Assembly (NCBI GenBank): GCA_964291315.2
Contig: OZ219753.1
Span: 1,568,001-1,632,000, forward strand
Reading direction: 5' to 3'
DNA: 64,000 nt
Source of the DNA: Candidatus Poribacteria bacterium
Lineage (GTDB): Bacteria > Poribacteria > WGA-4E > WGA-3G
Positions 2,762 to 62,564 of the stretch are shown one piece after another. The position numbers were made by a program, and so were the translations under genes. The notes below the pieces were generated by a model, which searched no databases, was not told the DNA's origin, and saw nothing but the letters and a program-made list of their open reading frames with translations. Positions within the stretch are counted from its first letter, which is position 1. Every line of letters begins with the position of its first letter.

Positions 2762-4238
2762 TTGCCTCTAGATATGCTTTAATCTGTGTTCGATATTTTA
2801 TAGGAATAAGGTTGTTGTTAATAGCTTCGGCGTATGTTCGCGTTGCGTTGAGAATGACATCACTGAAAGGCAGATATGGTGGAGCGTCGGTCCGGGGCTC
2901 ACCCATAAAAACGCCGGAGAAACTTTCTGAGTCGCCAGATGAACCGGCAGTGAGAGTAAGAGAGGCGCCGTTAACTTGTAAAGCCGGTGTTTCGTCCGAG
3001 ATCAGGGCCGTTGTCGGATCTCCTGCCTCTGTTATATTCTCTATTTTTTTATCATCGACCGCCTCTAATGTTGATTGAGGTTCGAAGTTGCTTTGAGCTT
3101 CACGCGTGCCTTGTACTTCACGCGTACCAGCATTTTGCCCAGGTGTACCCGCCGCATTGGCGATTCCGCCGTCAGAGCTTGTCGTTTGAATATCCGCAAG
3201 CGCTAACTCTTTCCTGTTCGCCATTAGTTCTGCTTCTAAACCGGCAAGGTTCGCTAATGTTTCGGCTTTCTGAAGTGTGTCGATAATGTCTTGCAAGTGC
3301 TCAAGTGTAACTGTCTTATCTTGAACCTGATTCAACGAATTACGCAGTGCACCTTCTGGAAGGTTTTCAACCAAACGTTCGAAGAGACTTTGCAGCTCCG
3401 CTCGGAGTTCTAGTGGTATCTCAGCCTGTTTTGTTATCTCTTTAAGTTCTGACCCAAGGTTGTCGGCATCCATACCGCGAAAGTGTTGGCTTGCTTTCAT
3501 CGCCTCCACAATAGCAGCTTGTGCTGAGTATGCTTTACGGACTTTTGTATTCAAGTCGCTGAGATGTTCTTGCGCTGTGTTGAGATCTGTTGTGACTTTT
3601 AGTCTACTTATTGTGGCTCGGATTTGCTTCTGGAGGGCTGGATCCTTGACTTGTTTCTGTTCAAGGCTTTGGACGACCCTATCTAATGCCTTTTGTTGGA
3701 ATTCGGTGAGCGGCCGCGGCACATCATAAAAAGTCGGGATGCCGAAAGATATACCTATCAATAAGATCGGAATCGGAAACATGCGCGATAACTGTGGTAC
3801 CCGATAGGGTTGGACTCTCTTTTTATCTAAGGTTCTTGCAGTCTTTGCTGCATCTCGAATTTGGGATTGTGCGAATTCGCCTTGCGTTGTATTTTGTATC
3901 AATCCAAAGGCTGTACTCAGTCTCTCTCTGAGATCCATTTTTTCATCAACAACTTGGGCGATAAATTGTAAGTCCTTCCAATGTTTAATGCTTAGGCAGA
4001 TACCTACTATCCCTGCTAAGAATATGACGATCCAAATGATACTTGACATTTGGATGGGCAAAAGAATCACTCGGCTCAAAAGAGACAAAATAGCAAGCAG
4101 AACAAGTCCACAGAAAATCGTATATGTAAGTGTTTGCAACAGGCCTTGTCTATACATTCTTGAACGGATATCGGTTAGACAGTTTCTGATCCGTTGCACG
4201 TTCGATGTTTCCATCTGACGGTGTTTAGATTTTACCAT
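2730..4238 (-). CDS. Hypothetical membrane-anchored coiled-coil protein
   Basis: Two N-terminal TM segments, LRERLSTA motif, long helical region, C-terminal IPIKYRTQIKAYLE motif resembling MoxR-cluster-associated proteins. Confidence 0.6.
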   Translation of the reverse strand: MVKSKHRQMETSNVQRIRNCLTDIRSRMYRQGLLQTLTYTIFCGLVLLAILSLLSRVILLPIQMSSIIWIVIFLAGIVGICLSIKHWKDLQFIAQVVDEKMDLRERLSTAFGLIQNTTQGEFAQSQIRDAAKTARTLDKKRVQPYRVPQLSRMFPIPILLIGISFGIPTFYDVPRPLTEFQQKALDRVVQSLEQKQVKDPALQKQIRATISRLKVTTDLNTAQEHLSDLNTKVRKAYSAQAAIVEAMKASQHFRGMDADNLGSELKEITKQAEIPLELRAELQSLFERLVENLPEGALRNSLNQVQDKTVTLEHLQDIIDTLQKAETLANLAGLEAELMANRKELALADIQTTSSDGGIANAAGTPGQNAGTREVQGTREAQSNFEPQSTLEAVDDKKIENITEAGDPTTALISDETPALQVNGASLTLTAGSSGDSESFSGVFMGEPRTDAPPYLPFSDVILNATRTYAEAINNNLIPIKYRTQIKAYLEAIAKKNEEKPD

Positions 4239-34539: not shown

Positions 34540-35490
34540 TTAGAGGATCGTTAATTCATCTTCCGCGCCGCTTTCTTCGAGAACCGTTACGAGTTCGGCA
34601 GCGACCCCGCCAAATGCTTCTGATTGCGGTGACTCTGGATTTCCTGCGACGATCGGAACGCCGATATCTCCGGCAGTACAAACTTCGGCGTCAAGTGGAA
34701 TCTGCCCTAAGAATGCTGTCCCAAATCGTTCGCTTGTGTTTTTCCCACCATCTGCACTAAAGATCTCGGTTTTTTCGTGGCAGTGTGGGCAGAGAAAGTA
34801 GCTCATGTTTTCTATAATTCCCAGAATCGGCACGCTGAGACGTTCAAACATAGCAACTCCTCGCCGGACGTCCGCAAGTGCCACGTCTTGAGGGGTTGTA
34901 ACGATAACTGCCCCGGTCAATGGAATTGCTTGTGTTAATGTGAGTGCGACGTCGCCTGTTCCGGGCGGGAGGTCAATAATTAGATAATCTAGTTCGCCCC
35001 ATGCCACGTCGCTCAGGAATTGGCGGATCGCACTGTGTAGCATCGGCCCCCGCCAAATCATCGCTTGTTCTTCCGGGACCATAAACCCGATCGACATCAA
35101 TTTAATATTGTGCCGAACCAGCGGAATCAGTTTTCGCTCCGGGCTGGTTCGCGGGCGTTCCTGAATGCCCATCATCGTCGGAATACTTGGACCGTAAGCA
35201 TCTGCATCCATTAAGCCGACTGCGGCACCACCGTTTGCAAGCGAAATTGCTAGATTCGTGGCGACAGTCGATTTTCCGACCCCGCCCTTTCCGCTTGCAA
35301 TTGCAATCTTATGTTTTATATTCGGTAATGTAATATTCTGTTGTTGTGTCTGCTGTTGCGGACTCGGTTTTTGTTTTTGCTGTCCAGAAATTTCTGAACC
35401 ACTGATTACCTTTAAGTCTGGATGCTGCTTTGCTGTTGGGGCTGATGGCGGTTTCGGTTTCTTCGTATCCCCTTTTTTTAAAAATCTCAT
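34540..35490 (-). CDS. mrp: Mrp/NBP35 (ApbC) Fe-S carrier ATPase
   Basis: SGKGGVGKST, DADAYGPS, WRGPM, DLPPGTGD and ENMSYFLCPHC; P/Q-rich N-terminus. Confidence 0.92.
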   Translation of the reverse strand: MRFLKKGDTKKPKPPSAPTAKQHPDLKVISGSEISGQQKQKPSPQQQTQQQNITLPNIKHKIAIASGKGGVGKSTVATNLAISLANGGAAVGLMDADAYGPSIPTMMGIQERPRTSPERKLIPLVRHNIKLMSIGFMVPEEQAMIWRGPMLHSAIRQFLSDVAWGELDYLIIDLPPGTGDVALTLTQAIPLTGAVIVTTPQDVALADVRRGVAMFERLSVPILGIIENMSYFLCPHCHEKTEIFSADGGKNTSERFGTAFLGQIPLDAEVCTAGDIGVPIVAGNPESPQSEAFGGVAAELVTVLEESGAEDELTIL

Positions 35491-35614
35491 GTTCGGTCTC
35501 CTGACTGATGGAATTTTATTGTTAACGTATTAGATGTTGCCGGCGCGATTAGCGCGGGCGTGTCGCATGTGTAATATTTCCGGTATACCGCAAAATAGTT
35601 TAACATTTTTTCTT

Positions 35615-35966
35615 TTCACATACCCTCCAGCTAAATCGAGGGGATCCCGTTGCCAAGTGAATCCCATGCTTCTTAGTGCGGATCACGGCGTTCCGACATC
35701 GGCAACCGAAGTCTACAAGGGTTGATCGCCGCTAGTCCGACGTCCTCTAAGCCAAAGGTTGCGGTTTCCGCAATCTTATTCCATTCATAGAATTCGGGGG
35801 ACTCATGTAGTGTTCCTTCCGAACAAGTGAACATCGTTCGGATACCGAAGTCAAAACGGAACAGAACAGACGGGAAGCAGCTTGACCCGTCTTACGGCAG
35901 CCCTTCAGAAACGGTATGGTCTGTCACAATGGAGATATAAAAATCGCCGAGGTTTTCTTACTTCAG
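35615..35966 (-). ncRNA. Putative structured RNA of about 350 nt with an IS200/IS605 reRNA-like 3' part
   Basis: Follows a near-consensus promoter, has no credible ORF, has multiple hairpins and ends ggatcccctcgatttagctggagggtatgtgaa. Confidence 0.5.
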
Positions 35967-35972
35967 ATATTT

Positions 35973-36000
35973 ATTATACCACATTTCCCGCAATTGTCAA
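35973..36000 (-). promoter_or_regulatory. Consensus sigma70 promoter with extended -10
   Basis: Minus strand reads TTGACA-16 bp-TATAAT, with TGnTATAAT. Confidence 0.75.
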
Positions 36001-36192
36001 ATATATTTTGACACGACTCATTAACCGCTACGACATCCCCAGCACAGAGAAACACAGTTTTGTAGCAGAATTTTTGATAATTTTGTATAATAACAGGAAT
36101 AGATAACTAAAGGTTAGCAGTCAGTCACTGACGGTTACGGGTAACCGGCCCCGAGTATCCTAATTGCTGACAGTCATTAAAAGGAGCTTTTT

Positions 36193-36858
36193 ATGAACAT
36201 TCTCATGTTGCGCCATTCCGCTGGTTTTGAACACACTTATCTACCCAATGCGGAAGTAGCACTGAAGCAGATTGGCGCAGAAAACGGTTGGAACGTTGTT
36301 ACAACGCACCGGTGTGAGCTGATTAATGCTGAAAATCTCGAAAAACAGGACCTCGTCGCGTTCGCAACCACGGGCAACTTGCCGTTTGATGATATGCAAA
36401 AAGAGGCACTTCTAAGTTTTGTACGCAACGGAAAAGGATTTTTGGGCATCCATAACGCTACAGATACCTGCTACGATTGGCCCGAATACGGCGAGATGCT
36501 AGGCGGCTATTTTGCTGGACACCCCTGGCACCAAGAAGTAAACGTTATCGTTGAGGATGCTGACCACCCTGCAACCCGTATGCTCGGCGGCAGTTTCAAA
36601 GTGGTTGACGAAATTTATACCTTCAAAAACTGGGACCGTAACAAAACCCGGGTCTTAATGCGCCTAGACAATGATTCTATTGACATCTCGCGTGGAAACC
36701 GTGAAGACCACGATTATGCCCTCGGATGGTGTCATACTTACGGGGAGGGGCGCGTGATGTATACGGCGCTCGGACACCCCGATCCACTCTGGGACGAGAA
36801 ATGGTTTCATGAGCACATCATGGGATGTATCAAATGGACTGCCGGACTTGAGGACTAG
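36193..36858 (+). CDS. ThuA-like domain protein
   Basis: GFEH, GKGFLGIH.ATD, GGYFAGHP, DEIY and GRVMYTALGH. Confidence 0.85.
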   Translation: MNILMLRHSAGFEHTYLPNAEVALKQIGAENGWNVVTTHRCELINAENLEKQDLVAFATTGNLPFDDMQKEALLSFVRNGKGFLGIHNATDTCYDWPEYGEMLGGYFAGHPWHQEVNVIVEDADHPATRMLGGSFKVVDEIYTFKNWDRNKTRVLMRLDNDSIDISRGNREDHDYALGWCHTYGEGRVMYTALGHPDPLWDEKWFHEHIMGCIKWTAGLED

Positions 36859-61427: not shown

Positions 61428-62564
61428 TTAGAGCATCGCAAGAACTGCTGCAATATCATTTAAAGATCGATGCTGTTTTACAAGTGTGGTTCCGAATTGA
61501 AGTGCTGCTCTCTCTACCCGCAGTTTATGGGATATATCAACAATACTTTCTATATCTTTGACGTGGGCCGCCCCGATGAGACGGCGTAGGATCTCCAACC
61601 CTGCAAACCCGATTGCATCGTGAAAGATGCCCTGCAATACTTGTGCTTTCAATTTAGTATCAACTGTTTTAAATTCATCCGTGTAGATATGCCACGTTTG
61701 CATGAGGGCGGTTTTAAGCATCGATTGTACGCTTGCGGTGCCTCGGTGTGAAAAGTAGGATAAGAGGTAATTTGCCCAATAGCATCCGAGGTCAAATCCG
61801 ACGGGGCCGTAGAAGGCAAATTCGGCATCGATAACTTTGGCTGTGTCGTTTTGGACCAAAACGCTCCCTGTATGCAGGTCTCCGTGGGTAACGCCCTGTT
61901 GCGTTGTTAGGAAAATCTGTTTGAGGGACGCTGCCTGCCCCAAAAATTCCGGATCCGTTTTTAATTGTTGAACATCCTGTTCTAAGCCGGGTGTCCAGAA
62001 GTTCGTCTCATGGTCGGTATACGGGAAGGTGAATACATAGTCGGCAGTTATTGCCTGCATAGTTGTATTCGCGAATTGTTGGGCGTAGTGCTGTGCAGTT
62101 GCGGGGTCAAGATTCGCTACATAGGTCTGGCTATGTACAACCCCCATGAATCGTCCGATCTGCTCGGCGATTGCAAGGTCCACCCTGCCTGTGATCAGGT
62201 CGTCCCGTAGGACACGGGCATCTCGGAGGTCTTCCATAGCTATGACGGCTGTTTCCGCATCAAAGCTGTATTGCACAGGCACGGCGCTGCTTGCTAAGCG
62301 GTTGTAGACCTCTAGTGCGCGAGATTCGTAAGTCAACCGTTGGGTGGACAGCGGATACTCGGGCCCCAATATTTTAATATAGGGCGGTGCATATTTAAGG
62401 ACGAGCGAATGCTGTGGGCGCGCCGTGTCCGAGACGCGATAGATTGTGTTGAGGTTTCCATCGCCAATCTCTTCTACGCGCAATTCGGTATCAGCCCGAA
62501 ACATGTGGATATCTGCATGTCGCTGACGCAGGTAACTTGGTAGCGTGGCAAGGTTGATTTCCAT
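61428..62564 (-). CDS. mtnK: S-methyl-5-thioribose kinase
   Basis: [32 protein letters not shown] and RRLIGAAHV. Confidence 0.88.

Follow-up and report, generated by a model that had tools for sequence, protein, structure and literature searches.

Insertion sequences of the IS200/IS605 family that carry tnpB alone, such as ISGst of Geobacillus stearothermophilus and ISDra2 of Deinococcus radiodurans, are the closest described counterparts of the locus analysed here. This arrangement is known as the IS1341 type. Like these elements, the locus has asymmetric ends, with subterminal hairpins that are weakened in this copy; it went in 3′ of a short fixed motif and duplicated no target, and its mobilisation would need a Y1 TnpA provided in trans. 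A guide-RNA scaffold overlaps the right end (RE) and the 3′ end of tnpB, and the tnpB of its intact relatives codes for the OrfB_IS605 and zinc-ribbon domains. In contrast to them, the copy in the window (the whole stretch of DNA that was analysed, 64 kb long) lacks a tnpB open reading frame, its ends are decayed and no intact TnpB or TnpA was found in the assembly. The fixed motif is TTATCAA here, whereas it is TTGAT in ISDra2 (PMC8612924). The reRNA of ISDra2, ~150 nt long, matches the 3′ end of tnpB together with the RE, after which come ~16 nt of flank (PMC8612924).

Two other kinds of system come close. Palindrome-associated transposable elements and those like them (PATE-like) are short and non-autonomous, possess a left end (LE), an RE and an omegaRNA region without any protein gene, and often encode omegaRNAs that would need TnpB in trans (PMC10055086). 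The locus resembles them in these structural traits, but it retains tnpB debris and looks like a derivative deleted in place, not like a streamlined and amplified miniature. It is nothing new in kind, since gene-less elements that keep an omegaRNA have already been described (PMC10055086). The TldR-type domesticated TnpB systems, with guide RNAs as transcription factors, also have a scaffold at a fixed chromosomal locus beside host genes; however, they keep a TnpB-derived protein (PMC10705468), and no such protein was found in this assembly.

The original prediction for this locus was a promoter-driven orphan RNA with a TnpB reRNA-like 3′ end, acting either as a stand-alone, possibly domesticated guide or as a leader of mrp. 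Our analysis favours another reading, to which we assign a probability of about 0.92: the locus would be a decayed, gene-less, multi-copy fossil of an IS200/IS605-family tnpB-only element and not an orphan guide-RNA gene. A decayed multi-copy non-autonomous IS605 element is the outcome that the prediction itself had named as contradicting it.

An insertion in the thuA–mrp spacer

All coordinates are those of the 64-kb window, and the element is read on the minus strand. On one side lies mrp (34540..35490, minus strand; Pfam PF10609, E 6.4e-105), which codes for a ParA/NUBPL-type Fe-S P-loop NTPase, is oriented like the element and starts 124 nt past its right end. On the other side lies a divergent thuA-like gene (36193..36858, plus strand; Pfam PF06283, E 2.6e-50). 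A search for mrp in 41 genomes of the genus, that of the window included, gave matches in 40, that is, in 39 of the 40 relatives, and the mrp loci of the 11 best relatives were compared. In ten of them thuA is divergent from mrp, the eleventh (L027) showing no thuA match within the locus. The spacer between the two genes measures 216–423 nt in those ten relatives and 702 nt here. The element is absent from all ten relatives compared across this spacer: their sequence runs ...TTATTATACAAAATT(G/A)TC(A/G)GAAAAAATGTTAAAC... unbroken across the insertion site, and their similarity to the window restarts at query position 447/448, which corresponds to window position 35614. The alignment of left ends, the empty sites and this resumption of similarity define an element of 459 nt (36073..35615, minus strand), an internally deleted derivative of a tnpB-only IS200/IS605-family element. 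Its left boundary is based on the alignment of 12 left ends together with the empty sites, and its right boundary on the restart of homology to relatives at 35614 and on a covariance-model match that stops at 35615. Read against these loci, the element of the window is a lineage-specific insertion.

Directly 5′ of the left end lies TTATCAA (36074..36080, minus strand), the target or transposon-adjacent motif (TAM). By manual count, this motif or a variant of it with one or two differences precedes all 12 aligned left ends, whose conservation starts at TTATCAA and continues with A(A/T)TCTTCCGCTACAAAAC; it also precedes the intact element of genome G021 (TTTATCAA). No target duplication is visible in the comparison with the empty sites of the ten relatives; in this, in its fixed motif and in lacking inverted terminal repeats, the copy behaves as IS200/IS605 elements do. 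The LE (35960..36073, minus strand) carries a weakened subterminal palindrome, CTGCTAC...GTAGCGG, and a promoter; it aligns with 11 other left ends of the genome and also with those found before full-length tnpB genes of genomes G001 and G005. The RE of the window copy keeps a hairpin, CCCTC/GAGGG, and finishes in TGAA where the family has TCAA. Folded as single-stranded DNA, the LE of the window copy reaches −2.6 kcal/mol (z −0.25) vs −11.5 kcal/mol (z −4.24, none of 200 shuffles folding as well) for that of the intact G021 element (L036), and its RE, in which only a 5-bp stem is kept, folds no better than shuffles (z +0.58).

The insertion is shared by related strains. Contigs from three public runs, all of one study, carry the element at the thuA–mrp locus, and no joint of an empty site across the element was found in them. 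Contigs 9 and 11 of X2 cover both element junctions, and contig 17 of X3 spans 35578–36436 with 29 differences and three gaps. Strains that share the insertion are up to ~3.4% diverged in these contigs. Within 35973–36000, the interval of the promoter, no base change is listed among the three runs, and one insertion (35986) is seen at partial depth. Because 28 nt should show only about one change when strains differ by ~3.4%, conservation of the promoter across strains is not significant, and the persistence of the element, as read from these contigs, gives no significant sign of constraint.

tnpB debris, sister copies and the guide-RNA scaffold

Intact counterparts exist in the genus. Genes for TnpB with both Pfam domains (OrfB_IS605 and the Cas12f1-like_TNB zinc ribbon) were found at L013 and L036 (400 aa each) and at L014 (405 aa). 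The intact L036 element is 1438 nt long (L036 1456–2893). It follows TTTATCAA, its left end holds a promoter-like TTGAAC-17-TAGACT, and it finishes in GTATGTCAA; the L014 element has the same layout, with the target, the promoter of the LE and a GTATGTCAA right end. The window element aligns with L036 by blastn in two blocks (E 6e-25 each). Element positions 115–290 correspond to nt ~452–609 of the L036 coding sequence (70% identity, with a 17-nt gap in L036), and positions 296–459 to the stretch from nt ~1059 to the stop codon and its 17-nt tail (73% identity). The two-block alignment implies that the 5′ UTR with codons 1 to ~150 and, further on, codons ~204 to ~352 have been lost; what is retained of tnpB amounts to two fragments of ~100 codons in total. 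This homology to an element encoding a TnpB with OrfB_IS605 and Cas12f1-like zinc-ribbon domains ties the locus to the IS200/IS605 family. Since the element contains no intact tnpB open reading frame (those over the region do not exceed 53 aa, and Pfam matches none of them), it is a derivative and not a functional member.

The first coding remnant (35966..35784, minus strand) was detected by tblastn with the G021 TnpB as query (57% identity, E 4e-14). It corresponds to TnpB residues 149–203, the RuvC-I Asp region, lies out of frame and carries an extra ~17–18 nt relative to the intact gene. The description of the stretch as non-coding, with no tnpB in the window, therefore stands for an intact gene but not for this remnant. 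The extra ~17–18 nt, situated before the RuvC-I Asp codon region, are present in four copies of this genome (window ~35880–35900 on the minus strand, C3:~3180–3200, C3:~281800 and C4:~1442300) when compared with the G021 and G024 genes. They may represent a six-residue insertion typical of a subfamily, and in the window they produce the agacggg/cccgucu inverted repeat.

The RNA had also been called an orphan, a term that does not survive a search of its own genome (4.40 Mb in 4 contigs, 95.2% complete), as about a dozen places there hold parts of the element. Parts of the stretch occur at seven further places with 76–90% identity; sensitive searches gave 28 pieces by blastn and 19 by nhmmer, and with queries of 411–561 nt parts recur at 8–28 places. 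Twelve loci of the genome have the left end in common, and a covariance model built from relatives only locates the scaffold at 13 places, two of which form a duplicate on C2 and C3. The sister copies follow one plan, in which a 5′ module of ~110 nt with the promoter and a 3′ module of ~170 nt ending in ...GTATGTCAA flank varying amounts of related sequence, up to ~1.1 kb in the longest copy. Their deletion end-points differ and their identity is only ~66–82%. All scaffold copies of the genome sit in gene-less or broken elements: a Pfam OrfB_IS605 remnant is left in a long copy (C3:3223–3417), and a Cas12f1-like zinc-ribbon remnant with one internal stop (C4:1295001–1295117) lies directly upstream of a 3′ module.

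Some further observations concern these copies. The longest decayed one (~1.1 kb, with a frameshifted tnpB) is identical at C3:2491–3586 and C2:10734–9639, both near contig ends, and may reflect an assembly-breaking repeat or a duplicated segment. The paralogous matches at contig ends were also considered as leaders of rRNA operons; this candidate was discarded, with no Rfam match at seven loci and no tRNA or tmRNA genes at eight. In many genomes of the genus, isolated matches of 35–37 nt (95–97% identical) contain only the RE hairpin and the terminal GTATGTCAA, as in G075, with six such matches at 95–97% over query positions 168/170–204. These could represent solo ends or miniature elements of very small size.

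The last part of the element (35615..35789, minus strand) comprises the last ~48 tnpB codons, the stop codon and the RE, and corresponds to the remnant of a reRNA/omegaRNA scaffold. The covariance model R1, built from alignment A2 of 18 relatives without any sequence of this genome, matches 35615–35789 over its full length with 65.5 bits (E 3e-18) and ends exactly at 35615. The 3′ end of the element is likewise homologous to the tnpB 3′ end and RE of intact elements (blastn E 6e-25, 73% identity). The resemblance to a TnpB right end that had been proposed is thus real, both by homology and by a model made from relatives. The scaffold finishes at the element boundary with native flank following, the layout that defines a reRNA (PMC8612924), and the start of a guide, placed near 35614 in the original prediction, coincides exactly with the position at which homology to relatives resumes. 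In the genus, 50 of the 65 genomes searched, including that of the window, match the 204-nt 3′ region of L036 with E <= 1e-8. Rfam includes the IS605-orfB motifs, HEARO and other curated RNAs. The comparison with Rfam that had been proposed gave nothing: no match at the gathering score in the 64-kb window and none even at E <= 10 in 35400–36200.

The secondary structure of the scaffold has modest backing from covariation, as judged from alignment A1 (28 scaffold copies, five of them from this genome). RNAalifold found a near-zero consensus (−2.02 kcal/mol) and missed the local hairpins. A structure of six hairpins was drawn by hand from the A1 sequences themselves, which biases the measure of paired cells; with it, 88.7% of cells fall in standard pairs, compared with 32–51% when the partners are slid. 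Fourteen cells are changed on both sides (reached by 4 of 500 shuffles), as are six pairs (163 of 500), and 29 further standard pair types occur (157 of 500); the last two measures do not exceed the shuffles. As the structure was drawn from the same sequences, these counts are supportive and not decisive. The window copy itself has degenerated. It shows nine non-standard pairs among the 34 of R1, and 3 nt are missing from helix 3. Counted by columns it keeps 25 of 35 pairs, part of its deficit in helices 5 and 6 being an alignment offset, whereas full-length non-G000 rows keep 29–35; four non-G000 rows without helices 4–5 keep 22–23, and G011 keeps 24.

Protein partners and the would-be guide

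A reRNA is bound and processed by a cognate TnpB. The statement of the original prediction that neither tnpB nor tnpA is in the window is correct for intact genes, none of which was found in the rest of the assembly either. Searches of the assembly (95.2% complete) with PF07282 and PF01385 gave only fragments in place of an intact TnpB, as did tblastn with five TnpB proteins (three plus two of further kinds), and Y1 TnpA (PF01797) had no match in the genome. Y1 TnpA is present in all four tnpB-holding relatives that were checked. An unassembled tnpB or tnpA is conceivable at the 95.2% completeness of the assembly (4 contigs). In sister species this family is multi-copy with intact members; the present genome keeps only its wrecks, a pattern that suggests loss of the transposase and TnpB machinery.

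Other TnpB lineages of the genus have similar ends. At L149 (G001:C56) and L150 (G005:C86), the same type of LE, TTATCTA followed by ATCTTCCGCTACAAAAC...GTAGCGG and then by TTGACA, is found before a full-length tnpB whose product is only 36–38% identical to the G021-type TnpB. The sharing of ends by different TnpB lineages presumably reflects a common transposase, and in G. stearothermophilus several kinds of element are served by one transposase (PMC10055086). A fragment of another lineage of TnpB, 78% identical to residues 20–158 of the L150 protein and not a full gene, also occurs in the present genome (C1:332984–333400).

If the RNA were used, its guide would be the native flank of 16–20 nt (35595..35614, minus strand), a sequence that relatives without the element also have. 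The search for genome matches to this putative guide that had been suggested returned, for the 20-mer with up to two mismatches, only its own site. The first 16 nt have one other exact copy (contig C2, approx. 62,190–62,205, plus strand) in an unrelated, coding-looking region, where it is preceded by AAAAATCA and not by TTATCAA. Because 3.0–3.7% of AT-rich 16-mers have a second copy in the genome, this match is treated as chance.

Promoter, neighbouring genes and alternative readings

The predicted promoter was found as announced, on the minus strand at 36000..35973: TTGACA-16-TATAAT, with a TG extension of the −10 box (TGgTATAAT) and 12 of 12 hexamer matches in a consensus scan, the scoring being that of a sigma-70 consensus whose validity in this phylum is assumed. 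Near-consensus hexamers occupy equal alignment columns in several sister copies among the 12 aligned left ends, and promoter-like hexamers also precede the intact tnpB genes of L014 and L036. By this shared position, TTGACA-16-TATAAT is the element's own native promoter. The strings and inverted repeats reported downstream of it are all found in the sequence, but the impression of a stretch dense in stems was not borne out: the putative 416-nt transcript has a minimum free energy z score of −0.23 and 37 of 100 shuffles fold equally well, so that its stems are no more than chance would give. Two of the stems, agacggg/cccgucu and uguucc/ggaaca, lie within the tnpB coding remnant and, from a reading of the printed copies, are not kept in sister copies.

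Insertion of an IS605-type element at this site could have had two local effects, cutting a promoter-like site of thuA and setting a consensus promoter before mrp. In L034 and L025, the empty site lies within a thuA-directed TTAACA-18-TATAAT (11 of 12 matches). Here its −35 half, TTAACA (35600..35605, plus strand), and its −10 half, TATAAT (36086..36091, plus strand), lie 480 nt apart. Only the −10 half remains on the thuA side, and the interval 35480–36200 shows no promoter-like site on the plus strand. The insertion thus likely disrupts a putative promoter of thuA. On the minus strand, the only promoter-like site of the same interval is that of the element, placed 482 nt upstream of mrp. The one terminator-like site between the two is a scaffold hairpin (35773–35759) with a poor T-run, and read-through from the element promoter into mrp is plausible from this layout.

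These findings can be joined into a probable history of the locus. An element of ~1.4 kb would have inserted 3′ of TTATCAA in the thuA–mrp spacer by single-strand ‘peel and paste’. Most of tnpB would then have been lost by frameshifts and two internal deletions, one removing the 5′ UTR and codons 1 to ~150 and the other codons ~204 to ~352. The survivors would be the LE with its near-consensus promoter and the last ~175 nt, which in intact elements constitute the TnpB guide-RNA scaffold and the right end recognised by the transposase. The promoter probably still fires, and the transcript containing the scaffold would run on across the flank as far as mrp. For want of a TnpB partner, this RNA is presumably without RNA-guided function, and the present-day effects of the element are likely to be regulatory only, namely extra transcription of mrp and a broken promoter-like site of thuA.

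The alternatives differ in how much of this history they accept. The promoter may have been co-opted for mrp after the element decayed, with the 5′ part of the transcript as a long leader, and it may compensate for the rearrangement of the divergent promoter region. The perfect-consensus promoter and the persistence of the element in all three runs leave room for such a role: the promoter matches at 12 of 12 positions, has the TG and is aimed at mrp, and no base change is listed in 35973–36000. Moreover, no other minus-strand promoter-like site is seen in 35480–36200, L034 having a TTGACG-18-TATTAT between the empty site and mrp, and the sole terminator-like site is a scaffold hairpin with a poor T-run of a kind that intact elements must read through. 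However, near-consensus promoters stand at the same position in other decayed copies and in intact elements; since they are a property of the family, the perfect promoter found here requires no selection, and conservation over 28 nt is not significant at ~3.4% divergence. We regard co-option as unlikely, and it would in any case add to the fossil explanation and not replace it.

The two roles proposed in the original prediction fare worse. A TnpB-family protein, unassembled or too divergent to be recognised, might load the scaffold in trans, for homing at the thuA–mrp donor joint or for repression of another target. The full length of the scaffold against the model, its strong promoter, the retention of ~170 nt of 3′ sequence by at least ten gene-less copies and the ~5% of the genome that may be missing are in keeping with this, as are the PATE-like elements with omegaRNAs dependent on TnpB in trans (PMC10055086). 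It is nevertheless very improbable, considering that the Pfam searches and the five-protein tblastn gave fragments only, that the scaffold has lost nine of its 34 pairs and 3 nt of helix 3 and the terminal TCAA is mutated, and that the 20-nt guide matches its own flank alone, the extra 16-mer being in a coding region and without a TAM. We hold it just as improbable that the dozen promoter-and-scaffold elements are kept for an unseen TnpB-derived effector, for instance in homing or in repression at places like the thuA–mrp promoter region, with the locus as a stand-alone guide-RNA gene. As for a novel structured RNA or a riboswitch-like leader of mrp without any relation to mobile DNA, it would agree with the inverted repeats and with a strong promoter upstream of a housekeeping gene; it is hardly credible for a stretch that has transposon homology throughout, is absent in all ten relatives compared, has no Rfam match and folds like its shuffles. 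The lineage-specific insertion, the ~12 decayed copies, the tnpB debris and the broken pairs argue against both a domesticated guide and a leader, and favour the fossil of a tnpB-only element.

For genome annotation, the locus illustrates that a strong promoter and a ‘structured’ RNA beside a housekeeping gene can be the end of a transposon, and that TnpB guide-RNA scaffolds persist after their genes are gone and can then pass for orphan sRNAs. The thuA–mrp neighbourhood has received a member of the family on another occasion as well: in L036 (G021:C220, 1340–2893), an intact copy lies ~115 nt downstream of the thuA stop codon. As its site and orientation differ from those of the window copy, it represents an independent insertion.
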